Positions 1 to 26,880 of a stretch of 64,000 nucleotides of DNA are shown in pieces. The stretch covers positions 1 through 64,000 of the forward strand of contig JAHWKR010000003.1 in NCBI GenBank assembly GCA_019347805.1. Direction: 5' to 3'. Below the pieces are notes generated by a model, which was not told the DNA's origin, did no database searches, and saw nothing but the letters and a program-made list of their open reading frames with translations. Positions within the stretch are counted from its first letter, which is position 1. Every line of letters starts with the position of its first letter. The stretch is from Methanobacteriota archaeon (GTDB lineage: Archaea > Thermoplasmatota > E2 > JACPAO01 > JAHWKR01). Made by a program: the position numbers and the translations under genes.

Positions 1-395
1 AAAACGTCTTGAGGTGCTCTCTTCCGACTTACGACGATCCCTACAATAGAAAAAACGAACAGTCCTGCTAACAAAATAAGATTGTACTCAACAAGTTTAA
101 AAAAGGATTCATGGTAGTCAATTTGCCATCTATACATTTTATAATAGATTCCGACAATAAGTCCGACGCCTCCTGCCGGCAGAAAAACGCTCACGTCTTG
201 ATGGAAGTACACTAGACCGGCCGCGACGACCACGAAGGAGCAGAATGACCATAGAAGCAACCAAAGAGGCCAAGTGGTCTCAGGACTGCTCGGTAGGATC
301 GTCACGGCAGAGATCGCCAACAGCACGAAAACCCCGAGTGCATACCACTTCCTCCTCGTCGAATCGATCATGCGAGGAGTCACTGCACCGATCAT
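1..395 (-). CDS. partial CDS, hypothetical membrane protein (C-terminus runs off left window edge)
   Basis: Manual minus-strand translation gives an open frame from ATG at 395 (stop TGA just upstream at 405-407) through position 1: MIGAVTPRMIDSTRRKWYALGVFVLLAISAVTIL...GLIVGIY...FKLVEYNLILLAGLFVFSIVGIVVSRK..., with several hydrophobic helices. It is not in the ORF track because no stop falls inside the window. The 3' part (1-240) is unusually AT-rich for this genome. Confidence 0.35.
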   Translation of the reverse strand, partial: MIGAVTPRMIDSTRRKWYALGVFVLLAISAVTILPSSPETTWPLWLLLWSFCSFVVVAAGLVYFHQDVSVFLPAGGVGLIVGIYYKMYRWQIDYHESFFKLVEYNLILLAGLFVFSIVGIVVSRKRAPQDV

Positions 396-479
396 GCCTT
401 TTCTTCATATATTCATTTGGGCAGGCATAGCCGCAAAACCAACAACATGGGGCGGATGGGGTCGAAGAAGCGATAGGAC

Positions 480-1607
480 TCAGATCTTCTTCTTCGTCAC
501 GATGGTCAACACGTCCTGGTCTTCCAAGACGTGGTCCAAAGAGACATGCTGTCCGTCGAACTTGGCGCTCTTGCCCCACACCTGCGCATAGCGGAACAAC
601 TTACGGAACTCGCGGTGCAGGTGGTCGCAGACGTCGCCGACGGTGGAACCGCGCGTGATGACCAGGGGTTCCTCGTAATCGGTCTCGCCTTTGTGCGGGC
701 GGAGGTAGACGCGGATGAAGTCGAGGATCTCGAAGGCGGTGTCCTTGAGGAGGTCCATGTTCATGCCGGTGATGGCGGAGATAGGGACGACGCGGAAGCC
801 CTGCGCGGAGAGTTCCTTGACGTTCTCTTGCAGGTCCTCTTCGGGCAATAGGTCTGACTTGGTGAGCGCGATGAAGCCGCGCGTGTAGACGCGGTTGCCC
901 GCCAGCTTGTCGATGAGCTGGTCGATGGTGATGTCTTCCCGGATGACGATGTTGGCATTGACGACCTTGAACTCGCGGCAGATGTCCTCGATGTAGTCGT
1001 CGTCCATGTTGGTCAGTTCGACCGTCTTGTTGATCTTGAGGCCGCCGCGGTCCGATTTGACGATCTGGATGTCGGCCGGTTTCTGGTTGAGCCGGATGCC
1101 GGCGTCGTAGATCTCGCGCAGGACCACTTCGAGTTCGTTGGGGGAATAGGCGTTGACGGTGATGAAGATGAGGTCGGAACTGCGCGCCGCCGCCAAGACC
1201 TCCTTGCCGCGCCCTTTCCCCGATGCGGCACCCTTGATGATGCCGGGCATGTCAAGGATCTGGATGTTGGCGCCCTTGTACTCCATCGAGCCGGGGATGA
1301 CGTCCAGCGTCGTGAAGGCATAGGCGCCGACCTCCGACTCGGTGCCGGTGAGCTTGTTCATGAGGGTCGATTTACCGACCGAGGGCAACCCGACGAGCCC
1401 GACCGTGGCGTTGCCCGATTTCTTCACCGCGAAGGACTTGCCGCCCCCGCCGCCGCCCATGAGGCGCTGTTTTTCCTGTTCTTGCCGGAGCTTGGCGATC
1501 TTGGCCTTGAGCTTCCCGATGTGGAACTCGGTGGCCTTGTTCTTCTGCGTCTTGAGGATCTCTTCCTCGATCTCCTTGATCTGCTCCGCGATGGTCGCCA
1601 TGGGCAT
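480..1607 (-). CDS. DRG/Rbg1-family GTPase (OBG-HflX superfamily, C-terminal TGS domain)
   Basis: ORF 480..2000(-). The conserved protein begins at internal ATG (cat at 1605-1607): MPMATIAEQIKEIEEEIL...GGGGGGKSF..VGLVGLPSVGKSTLMNKLTG (G1/Walker A), DMPGII (G3), TKSD (G4), C-terminal TGS-like ...DVLTIVTKKKI. This is the archaeal/eukaryal DRG architecture; the 131-aa N-terminal extension in the ORF track is Arg/Pro-rich and overlaps the divergent upstream region. Confidence 0.9.
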   Translation of the reverse strand: MPMATIAEQIKEIEEEILKTQKNKATEFHIGKLKAKIAKLRQEQEKQRLMGGGGGGKSFAVKKSGNATVGLVGLPSVGKSTLMNKLTGTESEVGAYAFTTLDVIPGSMEYKGANIQILDMPGIIKGAASGKGRGKEVLAAARSSDLIFITVNAYSPNELEVVLREIYDAGIRLNQKPADIQIVKSDRGGLKINKTVELTNMDDDYIEDICREFKVVNANIVIREDITIDQLIDKLAGNRVYTRGFIALTKSDLLPEEDLQENVKELSAQGFRVVPISAITGMNMDLLKDTAFEILDFIRVYLRPHKGETDYEEPLVITRGSTVGDVCDHLHREFRKLFRYAQVWGKSAKFDGQHVSLDHVLEDQDVLTIVTKKKI

Positions 1608-1776
1608 CGTGTCCGTACGGACAGGCGGCGGACGGCGGGCGGACGGGTATAAACCCTTCGCGCATAGGCCGCTCCGGCTTCCCTTCCGGGGACCGGCTGA
1701 AATAGGCCGCCGTCGCGGCCGACCCGAGGCGCACTTCGCCCCCACGCTTTTCACGGCGTGCTCGCTCGGCCGCCCC

Positions 1777-3330
1777 GTGGAAGCCGAAGCGCCGGACGGC
1801 ACCGCATCCGCAGGTGTCCTGAGCGGGGCGCCCGCGGTCCGGGCCGAGCGGCTGTCGTTCGGTCCGTCGGGCGGTTCGGGTCCGGTGCCGATCGACCGGT
1901 TGTCCTTCACCGTCGAACCAGGCGAGACGCTCCTCGTCGCAGGGCCTTCGGGGACCGGCAAGAGCATGCTGTTGTCACTCGTCGCCGGGCTCGGGTCCAC
2001 CTATTCCGACCCGCAAGTCGGTGGGCACCTTGTCGTCGCATGGCCGGAAGGTGTCGACCCCGGGCCACTGCCCCGGCCGCGGCCGGGCCGTGTCGGGTTC
2101 CTGCAGCAGGAACCGGGGGACGGTCTTCTCGGTGTCGACCTCCTTTCGGCGCTCGCGTTGCCGCTCGAACTCCTCGGCCTGGGCCGTGACGAGACCGCCG
2201 ACCGGGTCGGACATGCGCTCGAGACGTCCGGTCTCATGGAGATGGCCGAGCGCGAGGTGTCGACGCTCTCGGTCGGAGAACGCAAACGCGCCGCGCTCGC
2301 CGGCATCGAGGCGCTCGACCCTCCCCTTGTGCTCTTGGACGAGCCGCTCGCCGACCTTGACCCGCCCGGCGTGCGGCACCTCCTCGACGACCTTGCGCGC
2401 ATCCACACAGCGCGCACGGTCCTCGTCGCCGAGCACCGCATCGGCCCGCTGCGCGCCCTCGCCGACCGGGAACTCCATCTTGTCCCGAGCGCCGCCAGAC
2501 CTCCTCCACGTATCTGGACCCCTGCCATCGCCCGCGGCCCCGGCGGCGCGGAACCGGCCGTGGTCGCCAACAGCCTCAGTATCGACCGCGGCGGACGGCG
2601 GCTCATCGATGATGCGACGTTCCGGCTTGGGCCGGGTGTGTGGGGACTCCTCGGCCGCAACGGTGCGGGCAAGAGCACCCTGCTTTCGGTGCTCGCCGGT
2701 CTCGTCGCACCGACCTCCGGAGCGGTGACGGTCGCCGGCCGGCCCGTCTGGTCGAGGGGCCTCCGCGTGTCGCGGCGCGAGACGCACGAGGTCGGCCTGC
2801 GGCGGACGTTGCAGGTCTGTTTCCAGGAACCACGCGAGGCGTTCTTCGCCGCGTCGGTGAAGGAGGAGCTCACGGCCCCCATCGAACGGCTCGGACTGCT
2901 GCTCGGCCATCGTGCCCGCAGCAAGGTCGAGAACGGATTGGAGCAAGCAGGATTGACTCATCTTGCCGAGGTGTCGCCGCAACGACTCTCGGGCGGCGAG
3001 GCGCGACGGGTGCAGACCTTGGGCGCCCTCCTCGTCTCCCCGTCGGTGCTCTTCCTGGATGAGCCGACGCACGGATTGGACCCGGTGGCGCGGGACGCCT
3101 TGCGGGCGAACATCGCGGCGTTCGGCCGCGCGGGCGGCGTCGTCATCGTCGCCACGCATGAACCCGCTTTCCTCCCCGCGGGTGCGGAGTGGATCCATCT
3201 GCCGGGCGACGGGCGGGTCATGGTCGGCGACGCGGCACGACCGGGCGAACCGGGACCCGCCAAGGACGGCTACGTCGTCCCGGATCCGCTCGCCCCGGAG
3301 ACCACCGCCCTCCCGGAAGTGCGGCCGTGA
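1777..3330 (+). CDS. ECF-type transporter ATPase, duplicated ABC domains (EcfA1-EcfA2 fusion, CbiO-like)
   Basis: Two Walker A motifs (GPSGTGKS, GRNGAGKS), two signature motifs (LSVGERKRAAL, LSGGEARRVQ), two Walker B motifs (LLDEPLADLD, LFLDEPTHGLD). Start is uncertain: there is no in-frame ATG after the divergent DRG gene, so GTG at 1777 is proposed. The ORF-track start at 1342 lies inside the DRG gene. Confidence 0.8.
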   Translation: MEAEAPDGTASAGVLSGAPAVRAERLSFGPSGGSGPVPIDRLSFTVEPGETLLVAGPSGTGKSMLLSLVAGLGSTYSDPQVGGHLVVAWPEGVDPGPLPRPRPGRVGFLQQEPGDGLLGVDLLSALALPLELLGLGRDETADRVGHALETSGLMEMAEREVSTLSVGERKRAALAGIEALDPPLVLLDEPLADLDPPGVRHLLDDLARIHTARTVLVAEHRIGPLRALADRELHLVPSAARPPPRIWTPAIARGPGGAEPAVVANSLSIDRGGRRLIDDATFRLGPGVWGLLGRNGAGKSTLLSVLAGLVAPTSGAVTVAGRPVWSRGLRVSRRETHEVGLRRTLQVCFQEPREAFFAASVKEELTAPIERLGLLLGHRARSKVENGLEQAGLTHLAEVSPQRLSGGEARRVQTLGALLVSPSVLFLDEPTHGLDPVARDALRANIAAFGRAGGVVIVATHEPAFLPAGAEWIHLPGDGRVMVGDAARPGEPGPAKDGYVVPDPLAPETTALPEVRP

Positions 3331-15698: not shown

Positions 15699-17192
15699 TT
15701 ACGGCCAGAACTTGCTCTTCTTCTCGGGGTATGCCCCCAACCCGAAGTCCTGCCACCGCGCCTTCACCTTCTCCCGTGTGCCGTCGTCCATGGCGATGAC
15801 ATCGGGCCATGGGCGTGGATGCCCTTCCTCGGGCCATTTGGTGGTGGCGTCGATGCCGATCTTCCCGCCGACGCGGTGCAACGGAGAGGCGTGTTCCAGG
15901 TCGTCGACGGGGAAGCCGTCCAAGAGGACGACGTCGCGGGCGGGGTCGTAGCAGTGCGAGGCCACCCACATGACCATCGACGGGTCGTGCACGTCGACCC
16001 AGTCGTCGACGACGACGATCATCTTGGTGAACATCATCTGGCCGGTGCCCCAGATGCTCTGCATGATCTTCTTCGCCTGCCCGGGGTAGCGTTTCTTGAT
16101 GCTGATGATCATGAGGTTGTGGAAGCCGCCCTCGATGGGCATGTTCATGTCCACGACCTCGGGTTGGGTGAACTTGAGAAGCGGCAGGAAGAGGCGTTCG
16201 ATGGATTTGCCCCACCAGGCGTCCTCTTGCGGCGGGACGCCCACGATCGTGGTGGGATAGATCGGGTCGTTCCGCATCGTCACGGCGGAGCAGTGGAAGA
16301 CGGGATATTCGTCGGCCAATGAATAGTATCCCGTGTGGTCGCCGAACGGACCCTCGGTGCGCAGCTCGCCGGGGATGACGTGGCCTTCAAGCACGATCTC
16401 GGCGTCGGCGGGGACCTCGAGCGGCACCGTCTTGCATTTGACGAGCGGCAACCGTTTCTTCCTCAGGAAGCCGGCGAAGATGTATTCGTCCAATCCCTCC
16501 GGCAGGGGGCATCCGGCCGCGAACATCGTGGCGGGGTCGCCGCCGAACGCCACCGCGACCGGCAAGGGCTTCACGTCTTTGCCGGCCTGGGCGGCCTCCC
16601 AAAGATGCTTGGCGCCGCCCTTGTGGAGGTGCCAGTGCATGCCGGTGGTTTTCTTGTCGTAGACCTGCATGCGGTAGAGTCCCACGTTGCGGTCGCCGCT
16701 TTTCGGGTCTCGGGTGACCACTTGCGGGAGCGTGATGAAGCGTCCGGCGTCCTGCGGCCAGCACTTCAACACCGGGAGTCGGGTGAGGTCGACGTCGTCG
16801 CCTTCCAGGACCACTTCCTGGCACGATGCCTTGCGCACCGTCTTGGGGGGGAACGACAGCACCTCCTTGACGACGGCGAGTTTCCCGACCGCCTCCTTGA
16901 AAGACTTGGGCGGCTTGGTCTTGACGAGCGAGACGAGATGCTCGCCGATGCCCTCGATGTCCTCCGTCCCCAAAGCCAGCTGCATGCGCTTCGGCGAACC
17001 GAACGTGTTGATGAGGACGGGGATCTCCGAGCCCCTGACGTTCTCGAAAAGCAGCGCCGGCCCGCGCGCCTTGGTCACGCGGTCGGTGATCTCGGCGATC
17101 TCCAACACCGGGTCGACCTCCGCCTGGACGCGGACGAGCTCACCGTTCTCTTCGAGGACGCGGATGAAATCCCGGAGGTCCGAATAGGCCAT
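15699..17192 (-). CDS. ubiD: UbiD-family decarboxylase (prFMN-dependent; MqnM/UbiD-like)
   Basis: 497 aa, ATG at 17192: MAYSDLRDFIRVLEENGELVRV...GPALLFENVRGS...NVGLYRMQV...GGKIGIDAT. Full-length UbiD architecture. Confidence 0.9.
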   Translation of the reverse strand: MAYSDLRDFIRVLEENGELVRVQAEVDPVLEIAEITDRVTKARGPALLFENVRGSEIPVLINTFGSPKRMQLALGTEDIEGIGEHLVSLVKTKPPKSFKEAVGKLAVVKEVLSFPPKTVRKASCQEVVLEGDDVDLTRLPVLKCWPQDAGRFITLPQVVTRDPKSGDRNVGLYRMQVYDKKTTGMHWHLHKGGAKHLWEAAQAGKDVKPLPVAVAFGGDPATMFAAGCPLPEGLDEYIFAGFLRKKRLPLVKCKTVPLEVPADAEIVLEGHVIPGELRTEGPFGDHTGYYSLADEYPVFHCSAVTMRNDPIYPTTIVGVPPQEDAWWGKSIERLFLPLLKFTQPEVVDMNMPIEGGFHNLMIISIKKRYPGQAKKIMQSIWGTGQMMFTKMIVVVDDWVDVHDPSMVMWVASHCYDPARDVVLLDGFPVDDLEHASPLHRVGGKIGIDATTKWPEEGHPRPWPDVIAMDDGTREKVKARWQDFGLGAYPEKKSKFWP

Positions 17193-17391
17193 GGGCAGGG
17201 CGCGCGACAGGTCGGCTCGTTAAATAGCTTGGTGGGGCTGAGACCATCCCTCTTCAGGACGGGGTGTTTCTCGTGGCCAAGCGGCGCCGGCTCGGGGTGA
17301 TAAGCACGTGGGGTCCTTCGGCCCCCGGCCGCTATCCGATTGACGAACCCTTATAGTACCTCCTGGGGAGAAGGTCACGTTGGACGGATAG

Positions 17392-19080
17392 ATGGAACGT
17401 TCTCATTCGGCCCTTGATGCGGTGGACCGGGCGCCTGCGCCCCAGTCCAGCGGAGGCCTCTCCGTCCGTGCGTCTCCGGTCCTTGTCACCACCGCTCCGG
17501 ACCCGTCCGTCCCGCGTCCTGATGGCGACCCCTCGACGTCGTTCGGTGTCCGGCTCCGGCGCACCTCGAAGAAGGTACGGCAGACCCTTCTTTCCGACAA
17601 GATGGCCGTGGCCCATGTCGTGATGTTCATCATCACCGCCGCCATCTTCCTGCCCGCCATCGCCGTCCTCTTCGTCTACCTCGACGACACCGGGGAGAAC
17701 CAGAAACCCCCCACGGGCGCCATCCACATGCGCGCCCAACAGACCCTTCTGCAACTCACTTCTTCGAAGGGTCTGACGGAGAGCGGGAAGACCGACTGGA
17801 ACAACTACGGTGAACCGTGGACCGGTGCGACCGACCACAAGCTCGACGAGGTCGGCCTGGTCTCCGATGACGGCCGGGTGCTCTCGTACGACAAGATCCG
17901 CATGATCCAGCAGGGGCGCATGCAGACCTCCGTGGCGAACGGCTTCCTCGATTATCCGGAACTCAAGTCCGTTCTCAACATGGGCGACCGGTACGACCTG
18001 CGCATCCGGTCCTATCCGGTCGTCACCTCCTCGGTCGGCAACCCGTACGGCTCGGACCCGATCCAGGGCAAGCACGTCGGTTATGTGGCTGCGCTCACGA
18101 ACAGCGAGATCTCGGTGGGCACCGACGACTTCGGGTTCCCGACCGCCCGCGCCACCGCCGAGATCGAGGCCCTCAAACTCCTCAAACTCACGACAGATCC
18201 TTCGAGCGAGACGAACGGCTTCGATGCCGATTGGTACCAGCCTTGTTGCACTTCCAGCTCCCCGAACGCTTATTCCGGTGCAGCGGTCATCGAGGGCGAT
18301 GTCATCGCCACCACGTCGCGCACCTATGCCACGATCGAAGAACCGCTGGTTCCTATCCCCTACCTCGACCACTTCTTCGATTCCTACTTCAAGCTCGAGG
18401 ACGGTTCCTACCGCTTCGACGCCCTCGTCTTCGGCTCTGACGTCGACCTCACCTTGTGGAACACCGACAAGGCGCGCGCCGCCCTGACCGCCTTCCTCGA
18501 TTCGGGTCGCGCCATCGTCTTCCTCGGGTCCACGACGACCGCCGAAGGGCTCGTCAACAAGTGCGGCGCCACCGCCGATTGCCTACTCCGGGACGAGGAC
18601 GCCCACGCGCCGTTCACCACCCCGGACAGCACGAACCCGATCCTCAGCACGCCGAACAAGCTGAACCACCAGTCGTACGACAGCAGCACCGCCGGCGGTG
18701 ACTGGCCGATCTGTGACGACGACCGCAACGGCTTCATTCCCATCCTCATGGTGAGCGGGTCCGCCTCGTCGCCCGGTTGCACGGAGGTCCAGAAGGTCAT
18801 GCTCGGCATCACCGCCGGTGACCGCTACGACAACGGCGGGACGCTCGTGCTGTCCGCCTACGACGTCACGAAGAGCACCATGGCCAACAAACACGAAGCG
18901 GCGCGCTATTATTCCAACATCCTCAACATCGCCCTCCTGCGCGCGGCCTACATCGATTTCGGCCCGTCGCTCCCGGACCAGGCGCCGGTCGAGCACGCGG
19001 AGCGGATCCTGCTCATCGAGTTCCCGGACGGCACCAAGATGGACCTCGCGCTGCAGGTCTATGTCTGGCGCACCGGGTGA
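17392..19080 (+). CDS. membrane-anchored extracellular protein, hypothetical
   Basis: Single N-terminal TM (MAVAHVVMFIITAAIFLPAIAVLFVYL) followed by a ~480-aa Cys-containing ectodomain. An alternative start is ATG at 17602; the upstream 70 codons are Pro/Ser-rich but keep a coding-like GC3. Confidence 0.5.
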   Translation: MERSHSALDAVDRAPAPQSSGGLSVRASPVLVTTAPDPSVPRPDGDPSTSFGVRLRRTSKKVRQTLLSDKMAVAHVVMFIITAAIFLPAIAVLFVYLDDTGENQKPPTGAIHMRAQQTLLQLTSSKGLTESGKTDWNNYGEPWTGATDHKLDEVGLVSDDGRVLSYDKIRMIQQGRMQTSVANGFLDYPELKSVLNMGDRYDLRIRSYPVVTSSVGNPYGSDPIQGKHVGYVAALTNSEISVGTDDFGFPTARATAEIEALKLLKLTTDPSSETNGFDADWYQPCCTSSSPNAYSGAAVIEGDVIATTSRTYATIEEPLVPIPYLDHFFDSYFKLEDGSYRFDALVFGSDVDLTLWNTDKARAALTAFLDSGRAIVFLGSTTTAEGLVNKCGATADCLLRDEDAHAPFTTPDSTNPILSTPNKLNHQSYDSSTAGGDWPICDDDRNGFIPILMVSGSASSPGCTEVQKVMLGITAGDRYDNGGTLVLSAYDVTKSTMANKHEAARYYSNILNIALLRAAYIDFGPSLPDQAPVEHAERILLIEFPDGTKMDLALQVYVWRTG

Positions 19081-19275: not shown

Positions 19276-20988
19276 GTGGACATCGTGCGGACCCCTTGGA
19301 GATTCTTCGTCAGCCTCGCCCTCGTCGCCGTGATGGCTCCGGCCTTGCCGTTCCCGGCCGGTGTCGAGGCGACGCATCCGATCGACTCGCGCTCGCTTTG
19401 GGGCGAGTGGGGGGAACCGTTCGACGGCGAGGTGCCGGCGGTGAACCTCGTGGTCCTGCACGATGGCCGTGTGCTCTATTGGTCGGGCGTCGAGGCCGAC
19501 GAGACCGACACCGACCCCGCCCATGCCACGTTCTTCACGAAGACCCCGAAGAGCGGCGAATCACGCATCCTCGACCTCTCCGGGACGACCCCCGTCGTCA
19601 CCACGCCGACGCCTTCCGACGGCGGCGCCGCCGACCTCTTCTGCTCGGGACAGATCGTTTTGCCCGACGGCCGCGTGGTCGTCGCCGGTTCGACCGAATG
19701 GCACACGTTGCCCGACATGACGACCCCCCTCGAGGGCGGTGTGGACGTGCGCGTCTTCGACCCCGCGACCGACACCTGGACGGTGGTCGACGACATGGAG
19801 TGGGGACGTTGGTATCCCTCGGTCATCCAGCTCCCGGACGGGAGCCCGCTTGCGATCTCGGGCATCACGAACCTCACGATGCCCCACACGCAGGTCCTGC
19901 CATGGGAACGCTATGACCATGTGCACGACCATTGGAGCGAGGTCGACGGCGCGGACCGCCTCCTGCCGCTCTATCCCCGCGTCTTCGTCGTCCCGGGCGG
20001 ACCGATGAAGGGCGAGGTCTTCTACAACACCGTCGGCACCCTGTGGGGCCCGTTCGGCGAACATCCCGCCGAGGCGACGTGGAGCCTGCAGCAATCATTC
20101 GACCCGGACACGAAGACCTGGCGCTTCCTCGGCCCCTCCGTCTTCGGCGCGCGCCAGCACGGCGCGAGCGTCATGCTGCCGCTCTCGAGCGACGACGGTT
20201 ACGCGCCGCGCTTCCTCACTTTCGGTGGCACGCTCCAGCGTGGTGTCGCCGCCGTCCCGTTCGCGGAGGTCAACGACCTTTCCACCGACCCGCCGACGAA
20301 CACCGCGGTCGCCACGATGGCGAACGGCCGCTGGCACCTCAACGGCGTCACCCTCCCCGATGGCAAGGTGCTCGCGGTGGGCGGCGCCGCCTACGACAAT
20401 GTGGTCGTGCACGGACAAGAGAACGTGCCGATCCTGAGCGCTGAGATCTATGACCCGGAGAAAGACCGCTGGCTGGAGACGCCCGAGATGGAGGTGGCGC
20501 GCATGTACCACTCGACGGCGGCGCTTCTTCCCGACGGCAGCGTGCTCCTGGGTGGCCACGTGCCGCTTCCGAACCCGTTCACACCGCTCCGGCAGGAGAT
20601 CCCCGGGACCGGCTTCGCGCCGAACCCGCAGACGGTGGAGACGCGCTTCGAGGTCTACCGGCCGCCCTACATGTTCCGTGGCGACCGGCCGACCATCGAC
20701 GACGCGCCGGACCACACCCATTATGGCGCGACGTTCACCGTGAACGTGACGACCGACGCCCCGGTCGACTCGGTGGTCCTTGTCCGCCCCGGCGCCACGA
20801 CGCACGCCTTCGACATGGCGCAGCGCAGTGTGGTGCTCAACGTCGTCCACCAGGCCGGCGGAACATTGACCGTGGAGGCACCGCCGGACGCCACTGTCGC
20901 CCAACCCGGACATTGGATGCTCTTCGTCAATGAGGAGCACCCGCTCGGTCCTGTGCCGAGCGAGGCGAGGTTCGTGCACGTGTCCTAG
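19276..20988 (+). CDS. secreted copper-radical oxidase, galactose oxidase/glyoxal oxidase-like (Kelch propeller plus C-terminal DUF1929 Ig-like domain)
   Basis: Signal peptide. Kelch-like blades. Motifs typical of the glyoxal-oxidase family: RMYHSTAALLPDGSVLLGG, EVYRPPYMF, GHWMLFV. Confidence 0.7.
   Translation: MDIVRTPWRFFVSLALVAVMAPALPFPAGVEATHPIDSRSLWGEWGEPFDGEVPAVNLVVLHDGRVLYWSGVEADETDTDPAHATFFTKTPKSGESRILDLSGTTPVVTTPTPSDGGAADLFCSGQIVLPDGRVVVAGSTEWHTLPDMTTPLEGGVDVRVFDPATDTWTVVDDMEWGRWYPSVIQLPDGSPLAISGITNLTMPHTQVLPWERYDHVHDHWSEVDGADRLLPLYPRVFVVPGGPMKGEVFYNTVGTLWGPFGEHPAEATWSLQQSFDPDTKTWRFLGPSVFGARQHGASVMLPLSSDDGYAPRFLTFGGTLQRGVAAVPFAEVNDLSTDPPTNTAVATMANGRWHLNGVTLPDGKVLAVGGAAYDNVVVHGQENVPILSAEIYDPEKDRWLETPEMEVARMYHSTAALLPDGSVLLGGHVPLPNPFTPLRQEIPGTGFAPNPQTVETRFEVYRPPYMFRGDRPTIDDAPDHTHYGATFTVNVTTDAPVDSVVLVRPGATTHAFDMAQRSVVLNVVHQAGGTLTVEAPPDATVAQPGHWMLFVNEEHPLGPVPSEARFVHVS
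20950..20988. repeat. direct repeat copy 1 (3' end of oxidase gene including its TAG stop)
   Basis: cctgtgccgagcgaggcgaggttcgtgcacgtgtcctag matches 21779..21817 at 34 of 39 positions, with a perfect 24-nt core ccgagcgaggcgaggttcgtgcac. Confidence 0.8.
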
Positions 20989-21778
20989 GAACCGCCATCG
21001 ACCACAGGTGCGTACCGGCGACCAACTCACCGACCGCGACCTCCAACATCGACCTGCTCAAGCCATCAGGGGGCCCGCCAGGGCACAAAGGCTTAAGAAA
21101 AAGGCACGGCCATTTCGATACGATGACCGCGGACAGGATTCCGACCGAGCGTCGTAAGGTCCGCCTTACACTTCAAGAGGAGAAGGCCATCAGGCGCTGG
21201 GGCTCGATAATCGTCTCCACGCGCGACTGATCACCGAGTTGCCGCTCGACGCATTCCCGCGTCATCTTTATGTGCTGGTCCTTCACCTGTTGCCGACCGT
21301 AGCCGAACTCGCTCTGCCGGTCGATCAATCGATGCGACGCATCGGAGAAGTTGTCCACCGCGACCCGGAAATCGATCCTCGGCGTCCGGTTCGTCGCCAT
21401 ACCAGGGGAAGGCGATTCCCAGCGCGGTAAGGATCCCTTCGAGAAAGAGCATCGAGGTGCGGTGGTTCCCGTTTCCGAGGCACTGTGCCCAGACCAGAGA
21501 ATGAAGGACCTCCGCGACCAGGTCGGCGCCCCGAGCATCTGAGGCCAGCACTCCGCGGAACACCGCCGCCAGACGGTCCGGCTCCGTCGGCTTGTATTCC
21601 TCAAGGGCGACCCCCCGGTCGGTCAGATGGATCTGTCGCCGAATAGTACTCCAAGAACCGATCAACGGCTCGTTCGGCGGCGTCAGCCACGGCACATGCC
21701 ACTCCCGCAGCCCAGAAAACCCTTACCTCACCGCCCTAGGCGCATCTGACAGCCTTACCTAGTATGTATCGACCAGCG
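20989..21778. mobile_element. ~790-bp putative insertion/remnant element flanked by 39-bp direct repeats
   Basis: Bounded by the two repeat copies. Local GC is roughly 58%, against ~68% for the genome. It sits exactly between the convergent oxidase and ABC-2 permease stops and carries a Doc/Fic-like ORF on the minus strand. No integrase is present. Confidence 0.35.
21231..21695 (-). CDS. Fic/Doc-family-like protein with degenerate active-site motif
   Basis: ...LHSLVWAQCLGNGNHRTSMLFLEGILTALGI... aligns to the Doc core HxFxDxNKRTAxxxxxxFLxxNG. The catalytic His is replaced by Gln and the Asp by Gly/Asn. The gene lies entirely inside the insertion; an overlapping alternative frame is 21173..21604. 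Confidence 0.35.
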   Translation of the reverse strand: MPWLTPPNEPLIGSWSTIRRQIHLTDRGVALEEYKPTEPDRLAAVFRGVLASDARGADLVAEVLHSLVWAQCLGNGNHRTSMLFLEGILTALGIAFPWYGDEPDAEDRFPGRGGQLLRCVASIDRPAERVRLRSATGEGPAHKDDAGMRRAATR

Positions 21779-21817
21779 CTTGTCCCGAGCGAGGCGAGGT
21801 TCGTGCACCTTTCGTAG
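21779..21817. repeat. direct repeat copy 2
   Basis: cttgtcccgagcgaggcgaggttcgtgcacctttcgtag; ends 1 nt before the ABC-2 permease stop codon (tca at 21819-21821). Confidence 0.8.
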
Positions 21818-21818
21818 G

Positions 21819-22901
21819 TCACGACTCTCCGGCCGCCATCCATCTGCCGGCCCGCCTCAGCGCCGACCTAAGGAGCCCCCAGCCGACGAGCGACGCGACG
21901 AGGCTGCCAAGGACGACAAGGTGGACCCCTCGGTGCACGGAGTCGGCGGCGAGGAGCGTCACGGCGTTCACTGGTGAGACCGGCAAGAGCATCGCCAGGC
22001 CGAGGACGAGGAAGAAGGCGAGCGCGAAGAGCACCTGCGCCCGGTCGCGGTCGCGGACGGCGAGGGCGATGGCCGCCGCGAGAATACCGCCGATCCACGC
22101 GAGCGCGGTGGCGAGGACGGTGATGAAGAAGAGGCCGCTCCATGGGATGGAGAAGCCGTTCAGGGCCAGGAGCCCGAACCAGGCGACGACGAGGAGCGGC
22201 GTGATGGCGGTGTTGGCAAGGATCTTCCCTTCCACCACCTGCGTCGCGTTCGCCGGCGTCACCAAAAGCAGCGGCAGTGTCCCCCGTTGCACCTCCTCGG
22301 TCAACGAGTCGGCGCTGAGGCCGCCGGAGATGATGACCGGCAGGAAGACGAGGAGTGGGATGAGGAGGGCGTAGACGAACGAGAACTGGCCGGCGGCGAT
22401 GTCGCCCTCGACGTAGAGCGGTTCCTGGACGAGACGTCCGTCGCGCTCTTCGCGCAGCTCCTTCTCGTACACTTCAAGCGCGTTCTTGACCTGGGTGAGC
22501 GTCAGGGTGGCGAGCATGTCCGATTCGGGCAGCACCAGTTCGACGTCGAACGTGCCGTTCTCGTCCAGTGGCCCGCGTACGAGCATCAAGGCGTCGGCCG
22601 CCCCTTGGGTGAAGGCGGCGCGGGCGTTCTCGTCGCTGTCGTAGTAACGCACGTCGAGGCCTTCGGCGGCGAGCACCTCGGCCGCGCGGCTCGTACCGTT
22701 CGTCGCCACCACCGGCTCGGTGTAATCGGGGATGGCGGACGGGTCCACCAGCGCAGAGAGGCCGACGACAAGGAAGCTGGAGAAGGCGGCGACGAAGACC
22801 TGGATGACGATGGCGAGGAGGATGGTGCGTTCGCGGAAGATGCCGACGAACTCCTTCTTGGCGATGGCCCCTAGTGCGCTAAAGGAGACCACCTCCTCCA
22901 A
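21819..22901 (-). CDS. ABC-2 type transporter permease
   Basis: N-terminal cytoplasmic helix, a large extracytoplasmic loop, then 5 C-terminal TM helices; last gene of a three-gene minus-strand operon. Confidence 0.65.
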   Translation of the reverse strand: MEEVVSFSALGAIAKKEFVGIFRERTILLAIVIQVFVAAFSSFLVVGLSALVDPSAIPDYTEPVVATNGTSRAAEVLAAEGLDVRYYDSDENARAAFTQGAADALMLVRGPLDENGTFDVELVLPESDMLATLTLTQVKNALEVYEKELREERDGRLVQEPLYVEGDIAAGQFSFVYALLIPLLVFLPVIISGGLSADSLTEEVQRGTLPLLLVTPANATQVVEGKILANTAITPLLVVAWFGLLALNGFSIPWSGLFFITVLATALAWIGGILAAAIALAVRDRDRAQVLFALAFFLVLGLAMLLPVSPVNAVTLLAADSVHRGVHLVVLGSLVASLVGWGLLRSALRRAGRWMAAGES

Positions 22902-24738
22902 GGACCTTCAGGATGGCGAGGTTGTAGGCGGCGTGCAGGAGCACCGCGGAGGTGAAGGCGACGACGAAGTCGGCGCGGCCGCGGCGGGCACCCCAGGCCG
23001 AGATGCAGGCGGTCACGACATGCAGCAGCAGTGGGAAGAGGAGCAGCACACCGACGACGAGCCAGGGGATCCCCGCGTCCAAGGCCCCGGCGCCGGCGCT
23101 CCCGAAGACGGCGGCCCCGGCGGGCACCTGGAACAGCCCGGTGAGCGAGGCGAAAAGGAACGCCTTCTCGGCGACGAAGAACCCGACCCCGACGAGGGCG
23201 CCGAAGAGGAGCATCCGCTTCATCGGCACACGGCCGCGCTGCGCGGCGGCGTAGCTGGGGGCGCCCTTGAACAACTCCTCGACGAACGCGATGGCGACGA
23301 GCGTACCCAGGACGCCGGTCTGGACCGGCCAGGCGAAGAGGAACGCGACCAGGAAGAGCTCGGCGACGAGGACGAACGGGATGAACAGCGCCGCCAGCCA
23401 GAATCCGCTGCCGAGGCCGTGCACCTGGCGCGCCACGGCGTCGACCGCCTTCGACAGGACCGGCTTCTGGTGGAAGAGGTCCTCTTCGCGGAAGAGCGCC
23501 ACGCCGAGAAGGAAGAGCACCATGGCGACGAGTGTGAGTGGCACAGTGGCGTAGAGCATCTCGATGAGGGAGATCTCGGAGCCGCGCAGGTCGAGGACGA
23601 TGAGCGAGATGGGGGAGACCAGGGCGACCGGATGGACCTCGGTGAAGGCCGCCGGAAGGAAGGCGTACATGGTCAGCAGCACGCTCGCGAAGACGGTGAG
23701 GAAGGTGAGTTCGCGGAACGAGCGCGCGAACATGGCGGCGATGAACTCCAAAGCCAGGAAGACCAGGACGAGCGGGACGACGGCGACGAGCGACACCCAG
23801 CCGGCGCCGATCCAGAGCGCGATGGCCGCCGAGATGCCGAGCATCAGGACGAGGTAAGGCAGGGTCTTGCCGATGAGGATCTCCATCGGTGTGACCGGGG
23901 AGGCGAGGAGCGCTTCGCCTTGGCGGCCGAGGCGTTCGCGCAATATGGCGCCGGCGTAGACCTGGACGATGAAGTTCATCGGCAGGAGGAACGCGTAGGC
24001 GAGAAGCAGCGAACGGAACGGGAACGGCGGTTGCAGCGTCCCCGGTGTGTTCGGTTCGTCCCCTTGCGGCATGTAGGAGAAACCGCCGTCGATGTCCCCG
24101 GATGGTGGCGGAGCCGACGCGTCGCCGCTTGGCGTATCCGTGCCATCGCCCCCTTCGCCTTCCAGCCGGGACTCTTCCTCGTCGGCGGTCTCCCCTGCAC
24201 GTGGGTCGATCGGCTCGGGAAGGGCACCCGATGTCCCCCCACCGAACGCACCGGGTGCCTGCTCTTCGTAGCTGAGGGTGATGCGCACGGGGAACGCCGC
24301 CGTCTGGTCGGGCTCGGAGCGCATGATGAGGTGCGTGTGCGCCTTGACGGCGTCGTCGAGGGCGACGAGCGACGCCTTTCCCTTGTCGGTCGGTTTGGCG
24401 AACGCGTTCATGCGGTCGACACCGAGGTCGGCCTCGTCCGCATCCACGAAGGGAGCAGGGTCATCGACGATGAAGACACGGAAGACGGGGTCGGCCTCGA
24501 GCGCAGGCCGGAGCGGTGAGTCGGCGGTGACGGCGGCGCGGTAGATGTCGTGGTCGAAGTCGAATCCCGCGCCGAGGACGAACGGCGACAAGAGGGCGCC
24601 GAGGACGCCGAAGAGAAGAAGCCCGAGGAGGGTCTTGCGGTCGAGCTGTTTGCGCGTGCGGCCGAGCTCCCCTTTGGCGATGGTGGCGACGCGTCGGAGA
24701 CGCGCGGCGCTTCGCATGGGTCCGGCGGCGCGGGGCAA
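22879..24738 (-). CDS. ABC-2 family permease fused to a C-terminal CPBP (CAAX protease/bacteriocin-processing)-like intramembrane domain
   Basis: 619 aa with more than 10 TM helices. The C-terminal region carries CPBP-like motifs FVEELFKG (EExxxR-like), LLLHVVTAC (FxxxH-like) and LLHAAYNLAI (HxxxN). An acidic Gly/Asp-rich loop lies in the middle. Confidence 0.55.
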   Translation of the reverse strand: MPRAAGPMRSAARLRRVATIAKGELGRTRKQLDRKTLLGLLLFGVLGALLSPFVLGAGFDFDHDIYRAAVTADSPLRPALEADPVFRVFIVDDPAPFVDADEADLGVDRMNAFAKPTDKGKASLVALDDAVKAHTHLIMRSEPDQTAAFPVRITLSYEEQAPGAFGGGTSGALPEPIDPRAGETADEEESRLEGEGGDGTDTPSGDASAPPPSGDIDGGFSYMPQGDEPNTPGTLQPPFPFRSLLLAYAFLLPMNFIVQVYAGAILRERLGRQGEALLASPVTPMEILIGKTLPYLVLMLGISAAIALWIGAGWVSLVAVVPLVLVFLALEFIAAMFARSFRELTFLTVFASVLLTMYAFLPAAFTEVHPVALVSPISLIVLDLRGSEISLIEMLYATVPLTLVAMVLFLLGVALFREEDLFHQKPVLSKAVDAVARQVHGLGSGFWLAALFIPFVLVAELFLVAFLFAWPVQTGVLGTLVAIAFVEELFKGAPSYAAAQRGRVPMKRMLLFGALVGVGFFVAEKAFLFASLTGLFQVPAGAAVFGSAGAGALDAGIPWLVVGVLLLFPLLLHVVTACISAWGARRGRADFVVAFTSAVLLHAAYNLAILKVLGGGGLL

Positions 24739-24749
24739 GCCATGTCCTC

Positions 24750-25667
24750 CTAGTTGGCGGCGTGGCGCAGGAAGATCTCTTCCAGCGAGACCTCTTCCTC
24801 GCGGACGTCGATGATGCGGCCCCCTTTGTCCTTGACCTGTTCTTCGATGCCATGCACCTCGGCGAAATCGGTCACCGTCATCGCGAAACCGCGCGCGGTC
24901 TCCTCGGCGCCCATGAACGGCACGTCGGTGGTCACGGTGTAGCGGGTGCTGCGGGTCGAGGCACGGATCTCGGCCATCGTCCCTTGGGCGATGACACTGC
25001 CTTGCCGGACGATGAGGACGCGGTCGCAGATGCGTTCGACGTGGTAGAGGTTGTGCGCGCTGAAGACGACGGTCTTGCCGCGTCGGCTCAGCTCTTGGAC
25101 CAGGTCGAGGATGTAGGCAGAGGCGACCGGGTCGAGCCCGGAGGCGGGTTCGTCGTAGATGAGGAGGTCGGGGTCGTTGATGAGGCTGCGGGCGATGGCG
25201 ACCTTGCGCCGCATGCCCTTGGAAAGGTCGCCGATCTTCTTCTCGTCCCGGACATCGAGCTTGAGGGCGGCGAGGCTGTCGTCGATGCGGCGGTCGGCGA
25301 CGTCGCGTGGGACTTCGTAGAGTTCGGCGAAGAAGCGCAGGTACGACAACGGGGTCATGTCCTCGTAGAGGGGGGATTCCTCGGGGAGGTAGCCGATGCG
25401 CATCTTGTGCACCGGGTCCTCGACCTGGAGGCCCCCGACGGTCACCGTGCCGGTGGTCGGCGCGATGAGCCCGGCGAGGATCTTGATGGTTGTCGATTTT
25501 CCGGCGCCGTTCGGTCCGATGATGCCGAAGATCTCTCCGGGTCGGACATCGAAGGTGAGTTCCTTCATGGCCCAGTTGGCGCCATAGCGCTTGCCGAGGC
25601 CTTCGACCACCACGAACGGGTCGCCGGGCGTCGTCTGGGCATGGCTCGTCGTCGCCCTCGCCATCAT
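24750..25667 (-). CDS. ABC transporter ATP-binding protein (ABC-2 exporter ATPase)
   Basis: Internal start MMARATTS... at ATG 25667. Walker A GPNGAGKST, signature LSKGMRRKVAIA, Walker B LLIYDEPASGLD, H-loop. The upstream part of the ORF-track ORF is spurious. Confidence 0.85.
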   Translation of the reverse strand: MMARATTSHAQTTPGDPFVVVEGLGKRYGANWAMKELTFDVRPGEIFGIIGPNGAGKSTTIKILAGLIAPTTGTVTVGGLQVEDPVHKMRIGYLPEESPLYEDMTPLSYLRFFAELYEVPRDVADRRIDDSLAALKLDVRDEKKIGDLSKGMRRKVAIARSLINDPDLLIYDEPASGLDPVASAYILDLVQELSRRGKTVVFSAHNLYHVERICDRVLIVRQGSVIAQGTMAEIRASTRSTRYTVTTDVPFMGAEETARGFAMTVTDFAEVHGIEEQVKDKGGRIIDVREEEVSLEEIFLRHAAN

Positions 25668-25851
25668 GGCGCGACTTGCCGGGAGGAGGCTAATAAAGCA
25701 GCGGGGAGGGGTGGAGGTCCGGGGACGGCAGGGGTCCGCCGTGACGGAAGAAGGCCCGTGGGTCCGTTGTGGCCAAGGCCCTAAGAACGTGCGGCGGCCA
25801 GACACGGCCCGGACCGAACGCTTTAGGCCACGGCCCGGTTCACCGCATCCC

Positions 25852-26880
25852 ATGCCCATGGCCACCGCGACCGAGCACGACGACCCTGCTCCCGACGTGC
25901 ACCGGATCCCGGTCGACATCCCGTTCCCGCTCCCGCCGGCGAACGCCACTTACCTGAAGGGGGCGGTGCCGACCCTTGTCGATACCGGCGCGAAGACCGA
26001 CACGAGCTGGGAATCGTTCGAGCGACAGGCGCGGCGTCGCGGGATCGAGGTCGCGCGCATCGAGCAGGTGCTCGTCACGCATGTCCACCTCGACCATGCC
26101 GGCAACGCGGCGCGCATCCATGAGGCGTCGGGGGCCGAGGTGATGGTGCACGAGGCCGAGGCGGACATCCTGGAGAACTGGTCCTCGCTCACCGAAGGAC
26201 GCAACCGTTCGTATGAGGAGGGATTGCGGCGGGCGGGGCTCCCGGAGCGTCTGCGGCTCGCGCTTTCGCAGCGGGGTACCGATGTCGATGTCATGCTCGA
26301 TGATTGTCCGGTGGCGCGGCGGCTCAAGGACGGCGACAAGATCGAGGCGGGCGACCGCACGCTCACGGTCCTCCACACGCCGGGCCACACGCCGGGGTCG
26401 GTCATCTATTGGGACGAGGAGGATCAGGACCTCTCGCTCGCCATGACCGGCGACACGATCCTGGAGCGTATCACTCCGAACGCGTTGCAGGTGCGGCGCG
26501 AGGAGGACGGGGCGCTCGCCACCTATCTCAAGACGCTCGAGCGCCTGAAGAGCATGCCCATCGGGACGATGATCCCGGGCCATGGCCTGCCGGTGACAGG
26601 ACTCGACGGCATCATCGAGCGGGCGCTCAGGCTCTACGAGGAGCGCAGGGGACGCCTCGTCGGTTTCCTGAAGGACGCGGACGGACCGGTGACGGTGTGG
26701 CGGCTTGTCACCCGGGAATGGCCGGATGTGGATGCGGGCAAGGCGTTCCTCGCCACTTCGGAGGTGCTCGGTCATGTCGGCATCCTCGCCAAGGAGGGTG
26801 TCATTGAGATCACAGAGCCCGAGGAACGGGAAGACGACGAAGAGGCGGCGCTTCTTCGCCTGGCCGCGCCTGAGGCGTGA
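25852..26880 (+). CDS. MBL-fold metallo-hydrolase
   Basis: Start ATG at 25852 (MPMATATEHDD). Metal-binding motif THVHLDHAGN, later HTPGHTPG and PGHG. Confidence 0.7.
   Translation: MPMATATEHDDPAPDVHRIPVDIPFPLPPANATYLKGAVPTLVDTGAKTDTSWESFERQARRRGIEVARIEQVLVTHVHLDHAGNAARIHEASGAEVMVHEAEADILENWSSLTEGRNRSYEEGLRRAGLPERLRLALSQRGTDVDVMLDDCPVARRLKDGDKIEAGDRTLTVLHTPGHTPGSVIYWDEEDQDLSLAMTGDTILERITPNALQVRREEDGALATYLKTLERLKSMPIGTMIPGHGLPVTGLDGIIERALRLYEERRGRLVGFLKDADGPVTVWRLVTREWPDVDAGKAFLATSEVLGHVGILAKEGVIEITEPEEREDDEEAALLRLAAPEA

Follow-up and report, generated by a model that had tools for sequence, protein, structure and literature searches.

Archaeal cryptic integrated elements that occupy the 3'-distal part of protein-coding genes are defined by their integrase and range from 2.6 to 98 kb, with att sites of 29–69 bp in Crenarchaeota and boundaries that were verified by comparison with empty sites (Krupovic et al. 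2019, PMC6563490). A second class of interest is formed by the CIMEs, which have lost their integration and transfer genes and kept attL and attR: those of streptococci are decayed ICEs or IMEs with att sites that are demonstrated targets of incoming ICEs (PMC5704250).

The stretch of archaeal DNA analysed here (64 kb, hereafter the window) carries an islet of related anatomy. Its most likely origin is a mobile element that integrated and then decayed to a scar, and events of this sort are ordinary. The islet displays the direct repeats, the overlap with a gene 3' end that is reconstituted, and the foreign content by which att-bounded elements and CIMEs are recognized. An integrase gene is required for an active element and absent by definition in a CIME, and none occurs in the insert. 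The features of the locus are collected in Table 1.

Table 1. Coordinates of the islet and its flanking genes in the window
Feature	Position	Strand	Remarks
Copper-radical oxidase gene (glyoxal/galactose-oxidase-like, GlxA-type)	19276..20988	+	intact, 570 aa; target gene
Direct repeat copy 1 (attL-like)	20950..20989	+	CCTGTG + 24-nt core + GTGTCCTAG + G; encodes PVPSEARFVHVS-stop
Perfect 24-nt core, copy 1	20956..20979	+	presumed crossover region
Non-coding 3' flank of pseudogene, within insert	20990..21172		no recognisable gene or RNA
DUF8172 (PF26511) Doc/Fic-like pseudogene	21173..21702	-	likely GTG start 21702 or 21690; stop 21173-21175
5' flank of pseudogene up to copy 2	21703..21778		no homology to oxidase gene
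Direct repeat copy 2 (attR-like)	21779..21818	+	CTTGTC + core + CTTTCGTAG + G; reads LVPSEARFVHLS-stop in frame
Perfect 24-nt core, copy 2	21785..21808	+
Convergent ABC-2 family permease gene	21819..22901	-	Pfam ABC2_membrane_3; right-hand host boundary

A duplicated oxidase 3' end around foreign DNA

The target gene belongs to a large family (1354 matches at E<=1e-30 in the protein search), carries the Pfam domains Glyoxal_oxid_N, Kelch and GO-like_E_set, is identified by NCBIfam as radical copper oxidase GlxA (3e-66), and encodes a protein 100% identical to MBW3581714.1 (Euryarchaeota archaeon MAG). Copy 1 of the repeat (20950–20988) corresponds to its last 39 nt, i.e. the final 12 codons and the stop, and recurs as copy 2 (21779–21817) after a spacing of 790 nt, with 34 of 39 positions identical, or 35 of 40 when the G following each TAG is included. 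The perfect 24-nt core shared by both copies, CCGAGCGAGGCGAGGTTCGTGCAC, has two matches in the 64-kb window, for zero expected in shuffles. The TAG of copy 2 (21815–21817) lies 1 nt from the stop codon of the ABC-2 permease gene (TCA, 21819–21821). All these elements of the repeat, namely its length, spacing, identity, core and distance to the permease stop, had been described in an earlier note on this DNA and are confirmed here.

As copy 2 reads in frame like copy 1, the duplication leaves the oxidase at full length: its end position is the same as in the orthologues, and the GO-like E-set domain is complete to residue 569 of 570 (Pfam match to residues 471–569, profile positions 1–100 of 100). 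The view that the duplication reconstitutes the C-terminus of the oxidase therefore stands (copy 2, LVPSEARFVHLS-stop; copy 1, PVPSEARFVHVS-stop), and the oxidase is unaffected by the islet. On the other side, the permease gene is the first of a minus-strand operon encoding the permease, a 619-aa protein and an ATPase (24750–25949), with orthologues in the relative L021 of the permease (60% identity) and of the second protein (629 aa, 60% identity).

In composition, the 790-nt segment enclosed by the copies is foreign. Its GC content is 61.8% against 66.8% for the window, which places the insert within the lowest 1.9% of 790-nt windows, and the GC3 of its pseudogene is about 0.63 against 0.88–0.90 (0.88–0.89 in the flanking genes). 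The low-GC insert of the earlier note was thus correctly perceived, but its figures (~58% against 68%) exaggerated the difference: the GC dip is real but modest, and GC3 is the clearer signal. The pseudogene is the only content of the insert, and, as was also proposed before, neither an antitoxin nor an integrase would fit inside it. No Rfam or tRNA match was found in the insert or in the 64-kb window, and the 3' flank of the pseudogene within the insert does not resemble the flanks of its homologues in other genomes, either as DNA or in translation.

The DUF8172 pseudogene and its Doc-like family

A Doc/Fic-like core on the minus strand of the insert, first noticed in the earlier note, is borne out by the motif QCLGNGNHRT, encoded at 21456–21485. 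The gene is assigned to DUF8172 via the precomputed PF26511 hits of its homologues, the PF26511 model itself having given no score in the Pfam scan. These homologues (P0001–P0007, E-values of 3e-44 to 2e-29) span both the 154-aa and the 143-aa ORFs of the insert, and those annotated with PF26511 (P0001, P0002, P0005 and P0006) match with E-values of 3e-44 to 2e-34, at 44–52% identity and 87–89% coverage. In three-frame translation, the homology to the ~173-aa relatives is spread over three frames, which implies at least two frameshifts; consistently, tblastn returned two HSPs in different frames, and the N-terminal VADAAERAVDRFLEYY lies in the third. The first frameshift, near 21640, would be a deletion of ~8 nt, as judged from three missing residues (...FLEYY / RRQIHL...), and the second, near 21366–21371, corresponds to one additional nucleotide in GATCGATTTCCGG, between ...AEDRF and RVAVDNF.... 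Because the true decay consists of two frameshifts, the 154-aa ORF (21231–21695), previously taken for the gene product, is on the evidence of its reading frames a pseudogene fragment, the ~173-aa homologues aligning across two further frames.

Could these frameshifts be consensus errors, in a contig mis-joined at a short repeat shared by strains or paralogues? The source is indeed a metagenome-assembled genome. However, the insertion is coherent, the host sequence continues on both sides with a full-length oxidase and a full-length permease, neither of them frameshifted, and in L021 the orthologues of both genes are found in two corresponding blocks; moreover, one of the two frameshifts appears to be a multi-nucleotide deletion and not a homopolymer slip. 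An assembly artefact is very improbable.

The catalytic His and Asp are substituted (His to Gln, Asp to Asn), as the earlier note had observed, but these changes do not reflect decay: QCLGN(G/A)NHRT is invariant among the closest homologues of the pseudogene, so that the substitutions are a trait of the family. The toxin-like gene, then suspected of being inactivated, is so through its two frameshifts and not through its motif. More generally, the family motif can be written [Q/H]x[L/F][G/P]N[A/G]NHR[T/S], with Gln at the catalytic-His position in 41 of 54 motif matches and His in 11, Gln being found in all the close homologues. It aligns column for column to the motif of Doc, HxFx(D/N)(A/G)NKR, which like that of Fic, HxFx(D/E)GNGRxxR, includes the catalytic His, and the window gene deviates from both. 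The Fic/Doc helical core fold was recovered. Against PF02661, the window sequence scores 14.7–14.8 bits, for a gathering cutoff of 24, and E<=0.1 is reached by 13 of the 44 members of the family, the best at 6.7e-6. Scores of DUF8172 against Pfam and NCBIfam remained below thresholds, and nothing significant was obtained in PDB, whether by sequence search with the family profile or by Foldseek.

DUF8172 is a rare family, with 7 relatives among 5.8e9 proteins and 67 clusters among 1.84e9, and no literature on it was found. Its members are solitary genes, GC-poor relative to their hosts and located in at least five differing genomic contexts, with flanks that are unrelated between genomes, DNA and translated similarity ending at the CDS ends. 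No small conserved upstream ORF, as expected for an antitoxin, was seen in L012, L013, L014, L022 or L023, nor flanking repeats in L012–L015, L022 and L023; a 28-nt match at 71% in L013 was judged to be due to chance. Likewise, no mobile element neighbour or integrase was seen near the homologues in the contexts examined, no DUF8172 match was found in viral contigs or in phage and plasmid collections, and PADLOC gave only a weak PDC-S04 match for one distant member, without link to a defence system.

Taken together, we regard DUF8172, an unannotated family, as a Doc-like branch within the Fic/Doc superfamily that is rare and whose genes stand alone. Compared with Doc of phage P1, its His is replaced (mostly) by Gln, its Asp by Asn and its Lys by His, and it possesses an extra N-terminal helix as well as a C-terminal helical extension of ~70 residues. 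Unlike in Phd-Doc, no Phd-like partner gene is present in any DUF8172 context, and the copy in the window is decayed to a pseudogene. Genes of this family seem prone to gain and loss: two frameshifted copies, independent of each other, were encountered. This placement is the more useful by-product of the analysis: is DUF8172 a pseudo-enzyme, or an enzyme of altered chemistry? This is a question for Fic/Doc biochemists.

As its surviving DUF8172 gene is dead, the islet is probably without present function. The opposite picture would be a functional minimal cassette of 0.83 kb, devoid of integrase and mobilized in trans by one encoded elsewhere, with DUF8172 as sole cargo and a ~40-nt mimic of the conserved 3' end of Thermoplasmatota copper-radical oxidase genes as att site, DUF8172 itself being an active Doc-fold enzyme in which Gln, Asn and His replace His, Asp and Lys for a new chemistry; we regard this combination as very doubtful.

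Origin of the repeats and of the insert

All five mismatches between the repeat copies sit in the two arms, outside the core, while five mismatches placed at random leave an identical run of at least 24 nt with a probability of 0.031. The arms are nevertheless still homologous (10 of 15 positions, P 0.001–0.01). Frame and stop codon are preserved in each copy, and of the five differences, two are synonymous and three lie at third codon positions. An identical core associated with diverged arms thus argues for recombination between diverged partners, and against the decay of an exact duplication. According to the latter scenario, the insertion would have exactly duplicated the 39 nt of the host, as a target-site duplication of unusual length or by template switching, and copy 2 would then have decayed neutrally. 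Direct repeats flanking an insert that lacks a recombinase are what it would produce, but random substitutions rarely spare such a core (P about 0.03), copy 2 retains its frame and stop, the insert has neither terminal inverted repeats nor a transposase, and known target-site duplications of transposons or casposons are far shorter than 39 nt. We hold exact duplication to be decidedly improbable. IS elements, transposons and casposons were rejected as well, given the absence of inverted repeats at the insert ends and of a transposase ORF, and a repeat that is both 39 nt long and imperfect. A diversity-generating retroelement was discarded too: the bases of copy 2 at the five mismatches are T, C, C, T and G, with no A among them, and a reverse transcriptase gene would not fit.

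The arms carry further information on the partners. On the left, copy 1 begins with an arm (CCTGTG) that runs on from the host sequence and is identical in L021. The right arm of copy 2 yields an ending in ...VHLS-stop, which resembles the ...VHLA-stop of the orthologue L016, with an identical run of 18 nt, and HL(S/A)-stop is the commonest ending among the oxidase orthologues. Upstream, similarity to the oxidase ceases at about 21779–21781, and there is no trace of oxidase coding sequence before 21779.

We give about an even chance to a single-crossover, att-type integration of foreign DNA into the oxidase 3' end, which would have left an integrase-less remnant. One (Campbell-type) crossover would have joined a circular DNA, bearing a site of ~37–40 nt that mimics the oxidase 3' end, stop codon included, to the oxidase gene within its final ~12 codons; we infer that the exchange took place inside the 24-nt stretch identical in both partners. 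The oxidase would now end in codons supplied by the element (Val-Ser-stop, right arm of copy 1), and its original end (Leu-Ser-stop, right arm of copy 2) would have been displaced 829 nt downstream, still 1 nt from the ABC-2 stop. On this assignment of the arms, the empty attB would read ...CCTGTG-core-CTTTCGTAGGTCACGAC, the circular attP ...CGACCAGCGCTTGTC-core-GTGTCCTAGGAACCGCC, and the uninterrupted host oxidase ...GTGCACCTTTCGTAG-G-TCA..., whereas an intact element would contain the junction ...CTTGTC-core-GTGTCCTAGGAACC.... The reverse assignment of host and element would predict an uninterrupted oxidase ending in ...CACGTGTCCTAG against the ABC-2 stop, and the integration itself would still stand. 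The most likely catalyst would be a tyrosine-type integrase encoded by a larger integrative element, which would later have lost everything except one cargo gene (the Doc-like DUF8172), leaving a CIME-like or decayed cryptic integrated element. A large deletion must indeed be assumed, because the element measures 829 bp, far below the 2.6 kb of the smallest cryptic integrated element. Site-specific integration, as read in the earlier note, is a proposal drawn from the anatomy of the locus.

An integrase may, on the other hand, have been dispensable. The oxidase 3' ends are conserved at the DNA level (up to 30 of 39 nt with the 61%-identical orthologue L016), so that copy 2 could derive from another oxidase gene without any att system. 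A fragment from a related archaeon, comprising the last ~37 nt of its oxidase and the DUF8172 gene, would have circularised and recombined with the resident 3' end by homologous or microhomology recombination of the host, with no att site or mobile element ever involved. At ~61% protein identity, oxidase 3' ends share 30 of 39 nt with perfect runs of 16–18 nt, which makes any foreign oxidase end a substrate for recombination, and both arms look like natural endings (HVS-stop/HVA-stop in L018, HLS-stop/HLA-stop in L016). The lack of an integrase, attP or other copy in the window ORFs scanned, the window, the metagenome contigs and the viral contigs, and the location of DUF8172 genes elsewhere outside recognisable mobile elements, also point in this direction. 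In contrast, the gene never adjoins an oxidase in its five other contexts, and the piece derived from the oxidase is short (~37–40 nt) with abrupt limits, a size typical of att sites that a random donor fragment would match only by accident. Such an import is possible, if rather unlikely.

The searches on which these points bear were the following. Integrase domains were absent from the 20 window ORFs scanned. The earlier note had suggested a search for the 24-nt core elsewhere in the genome; no third copy was found in the 64-kb window, and none in metagenome contigs or in viral contigs; a degenerate core-plus-arm pattern, in both arm versions (attB-like and attP-like), was absent from the viral contigs. 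Five orthologous oxidase loci were recovered with different downstream genes, the nearest orthologues being only 60–64% identical (best non-self match in the protein search, 64%), and relatives in genome contigs showed 24–45% identity only. In L021, the same oxidase and ABC-2 blocks are present, separated by a gene for a 159-aa protein and a glutamate dehydrogenase gene. A duplicated oxidase 3' end was seen in none of the six other oxidase loci, the duplication being specific to this genome among those compared; the one 20-mer match downstream of an oxidase, in L017, falls within the following gene and was attributed to chance.

These loci also bear on a different origin of copy 2, as what is left of a tandem paralogue of the oxidase that once ended against the ABC-2 gene and was mostly deleted or replaced by the DUF8172-bearing DNA, down to its last ~37 nt. 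Tandem oxidase paralogues do exist in L017, the family is large, and the region between oxidase and ABC-2 gene is variable, as illustrated by the filler genes of L021. However, the 3' ends of the L017 paralogues share 24 of 39 nt with a longest run of 5, versus 34 of 39 and 24 here, no other oxidase-like sequence occurs in the 64-kb window, and no residual oxidase coding signal is detected upstream of copy 2; this origin is improbable.

The islet compared with known integrated elements

Under att-type integration, the islet shares with archaeal cryptic integrated elements the bracketing of foreign DNA by attL and attR, one of them extending over the 3' end of a protein-coding target, and the terminal codons and stop supplied by the element, which keep the target gene intact. 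Its repeat of ~39 nt is inside the 29–69 bp range of crenarchaeal att sites (PMC6563490). It differs from them by its size of 0.8 kb, the lack of an integrase and a single, dead cargo gene, and by att boundaries that are drawn from this genome alone. CIMEs, in turn, are bacterial, usually several kb long and derived from conjugative elements, whereas the repeats of the islet are putative att sites only. Seen as an integration scar, the islet is ordinary; it contributes one more case, from an archaeal lineage that is poorly sampled (Thermoplasmatota/Euryarchaeota MAG), of the entry of foreign DNA at the 3' end of a protein-coding gene with preservation of that gene.

Repeats at the end of the oxidase gene

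The source of the window is a MAG of a Euryarchaeota archaeon, and the MAGs closest to it belong to Thermoplasmatota. Its copper-radical oxidase gene (MBW3581714.1) has its last 39 nt repeated downstream, and the sequence bears out the repeat as first described: the two copies match at 34/39 positions (35/40 counting the G after each stop) and share a perfect 24-nt core. Across the 64 kb this core is present at these two sites only, and it never appeared in 100 dinucleotide shuffles with up to 3 mismatches allowed. A single nucleotide separates the TAG of copy 2 from TCA, where the convergent ABC-2 permease gene has its stop. In-frame translation gives PVPSEARFVHVS for copy 1 and LVPSEARFVHLS for copy 2.

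Features of the islet and of its surroundings in the window
Feature	Position	Strand	Description
Low-GC kilobase	1-1000		lowest GC in the window
GTPase-like ORF	480-2000	-	
UbiD	15702-17219		further upstream of oxidase
Upstream partner	17392-19080	+	no Pfam domain; directly upstream of oxidase
Oxidase gene	19276-20988	+	copper-radical oxidase
Repeat copy 1	20950-20988		last 39 nt of oxidase gene; CCTGTGCCGAGCGAGGCGAGGTTCGTGCACGTGTCCTAG
Insert	20989-21778		DNA between the repeats
143-aa ORF	21173-21604		other frame than the 154-aa ORF
154-aa ORF	21231-21695	-	part of the DUF8172 gene
Frameshift 2	near 21366-21371		one added base
Family motif	21456-21485	-	
Frameshift 1	near 21640		one nucleotide for three codons
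Pseudogene, N-terminal part			first frame; VADAAERAVDRFLEYY
Pseudogene, middle part			second frame; RRQIHLTDRG...WYGDEPDAEDRF
Pseudogene, C-terminal part			third frame; RVAVDNFSDASHRLIDRQSEFGYG...QRLMAFSS*
Repeat copy 2	21779-21817		recurrence of oxidase gene end; CTTGTCCCGAGCGAGGCGAGGTTCGTGCACCTTTCGTAG
ABC-2 permease gene	21819-22901	-	convergent with oxidase
619-aa protein	22879-24738	-	membrane-rich; between ABC-2 permease and ABC ATPase

An in-situ duplication of the oxidase end is one alternative origin for copy 2. All five mismatches fall in the arms flanking the core (P = 0.031 for a perfect run of at least 24 given five random mismatches), two of the five are synonymous, the arms are still homologous (10/15 positions) and both copies retain the stop codon. 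Mismatches confined to homologous arms, together with the kept stop, disfavour an exact duplication with later decay; the pattern is suggestive of recombination between two diverged oxidase ends at their identical stretch. Copy 2 could alternatively be the relic of a deleted tandem oxidase paralogue. Tandem paralogues exist at one locus compared (L017), their ends matching each other at 24/39 positions with a longest run of 5, far below the two window copies. Oxidase similarity around copy 2 ends at ~21779-21781, no trace of oxidase coding sequence lies upstream of ~21779, and the window holds no second oxidase gene.

Set beside six other oxidase 3' ends, this one proves to be conserved in DNA sequence throughout the family. 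The end in L016 (61% protein identity) agrees with both copies at 30/39 positions, with perfect runs of 16-18 nt, and the copies are nearer to each other than to any other end compared. None of the other oxidase loci examined has a duplicated 3' end. The closest relative by synteny, L021, shows the same convergent arrangement, made up of orthologues of the oxidase (61%), of the ABC-2 permease (60%) and of the next protein (619/629 aa, 60%). Between the two blocks (L021:1906-3632) it has a 159-aa gene without Pfam match and a glutamate dehydrogenase gene, with no DUF8172 islet, and the oxidase/ABC-2 junction is therefore a variable spot. The left arm and first 12 core bases of copy 1 (CCTGTGCCGAGCGAGGCG) are identical in L021, which fits a host origin of this arm. 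No relative found is close enough to act as an empty site.

The upstream partner of the oxidase (514-562 aa) also occurs in L018 (4108-5652) and L020 (1121-2716), at 34-36% identity, with UbiD further upstream in L018 too; the pair may form a conserved two-gene oxidase module in Thermoplasmatota. On the other side, the 619-aa protein (60% identity with L021:4697-6586) matches nothing in Pfam or NCBIfam and contains a low-complexity, acidic insert, and the ABC-2 permease beside it shows a weak resemblance to NF041647, a family of ABC-permease/CPBP-protease fusions.

The DUF8172 gene of the insert

The GC content of the insert is 61.8% against 66.8% for the window, within the lowest 1.9% of 790-nt windows, and its third-position GC is ~0.63 against 0.80-0.92 in the window's likely genes; the dip in the earlier note is real, its values (58% against 68%) are not. 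No kilobase of the window is poorer in GC than the first (53.8% against 66.8%), which overlaps the GTPase-like ORF in its C-terminal half. This ORF, of DRG/Obg type by eye only, has in its stop-to-stop frame an odd and long N-terminal extension rich in Pro and Arg.

The 154-aa ORF, which the earlier note had taken for the gene, covers only part of it. Joined to the overlapping 143-aa ORF as a query, it retrieved seven proteins of 171-178 aa and one miscalled at 132 aa (E 3e-44 to 2e-29), with matches spanning 77-93% of the joined sequence and a precomputed PF26511 (DUF8172) match on four of them. Alignment and tblastn spread this homology over three frames. At frameshift 1, one nucleotide remains where homologues carry three codons, which therefore points to a ~8-nt deletion; at frameshift 2, an added base in GATCGATTTCCGG puts the C-terminal third, where 13 of the family's 28 invariant positions lie, out of frame. 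As assembled, the gene is thus a pseudogene, provided that the MAG consensus is right.

The DUF8172 family and its relation to Doc and Fic

All eight aligned sequences of the close family share one identical motif, LH.L.W.QCLGN(G/A)NHRT, which had been read as a Fic motif in decay. The family (here P0001-P0007 and P0128-P0194) is very rare: 1.84 billion cluster representatives, searched exhaustively with its profile, contained only 67 members (clusters at 50% identity). Its generalised motif is [Q/H]x[L/F][G/P]N[A/G]NHR[T/S], in which 44 aligned sequences show no variation at N, N, H and R; where Fic/Doc proteins have a catalytic His, DUF8172 has Gln in 41 of 54 motif matches and His in 11. 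When the 44-sequence alignment was compared by hhalign with a hand-entered P1 Doc sequence, QCLGNANHRT fell exactly over HIFNDANKRT (E 1.5e-4, probability 51%). Pfam Fic is matched by 13/44 members (best 6.7e-6), and His-type members match TIGR01550 DOC_P1 (5e-6) and phrog_577 'Doc-like toxin' (4e-5), though every Doc/Fic family-library score is under curated cut-offs. The AlphaFold model of P0001 is all-helical and confident (pLDDT 87.4, pTM 0.86); on the opposing side, Foldseek against the PDB gave no significant match, with Doc at rank 32, nor did a narrow family profile match PDB sequences. The Doc/Fic-like character proposed earlier is thus retained, identity with a canonical Doc toxin is rejected, and DUF8172 is best placed within the Fic/Doc superfamily as a divergent lineage related to Doc. 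This Gln-for-His family is the side result most worth pursuing. In one member, P0153 (1353 aa), residues 177-218 form a canonical Fic domain (E 1e-8) and residues 560-703 a DUF8172-like domain (motif QSLPNANHRT); the protein also has a thioredoxin at its C-terminus and a weak ParB_N. A single polypeptide can therefore hold both canonical and Gln-type modules.

The genomic surroundings of DUF8172 homologues are of five or more unrelated kinds: downstream of a UPF0014 permease gene (L012 and its relative L022), adjoining arginine/lysine-biosynthesis genes (L014, L015), downstream of a Cys/Met-metabolism gene (L023), amid unannotated genes (L013) and at a contig end (L019). They are solitary in every context examined, with no conserved small upstream ORF, integrase or flanking direct repeats around them, and similarity between loci, DNA and translated, ends at coding-sequence boundaries. 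The genes are lower in GC than their hosts (e.g. 54.5% against 65.5% in L012). The L022 copy (160-720) is frameshifted, its N-terminal part lying over several frames, and the same locus in L012 (9843-10399) is intact, which looks like a second, independent pseudogenisation. IMG/VR, a phage collection and a plasmid collection held no relatives. A toxin-antitoxin pair and a recognisable mobile element were both rejected on these grounds, and what emerges is an accessory gene that is rare, patchy in its distribution and easily lost.

Origin of the islet

The best reading of the islet, from its anatomy, is the single-crossover integration of circular foreign DNA bearing an oxidase-end mimic of ~37-40 nt. 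Crossover within the 24-nt core would have brought in GTGTCCTAG and all sequence through 21778, leaving the original CTTTCGTAG beside the ABC-2 stop. The integration footprint proposed in the earlier note stands as to anatomy; neither an empty site nor an integrase nor a further copy turned up to go with it. We infer that an integrase took part and that the element was once larger; integrase-free Campbell-type recombination with a piece of another oxidase gene is an alternative, as is mis-assembly. The single-crossover reading agrees with what is on record for archaeal integrated elements, and the islet would correspond to the bacterial CIME concept, in which attL and attR are kept and the integrase is lost (PMC5704250). 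So read, it is a further instance of an already known kind of integration.
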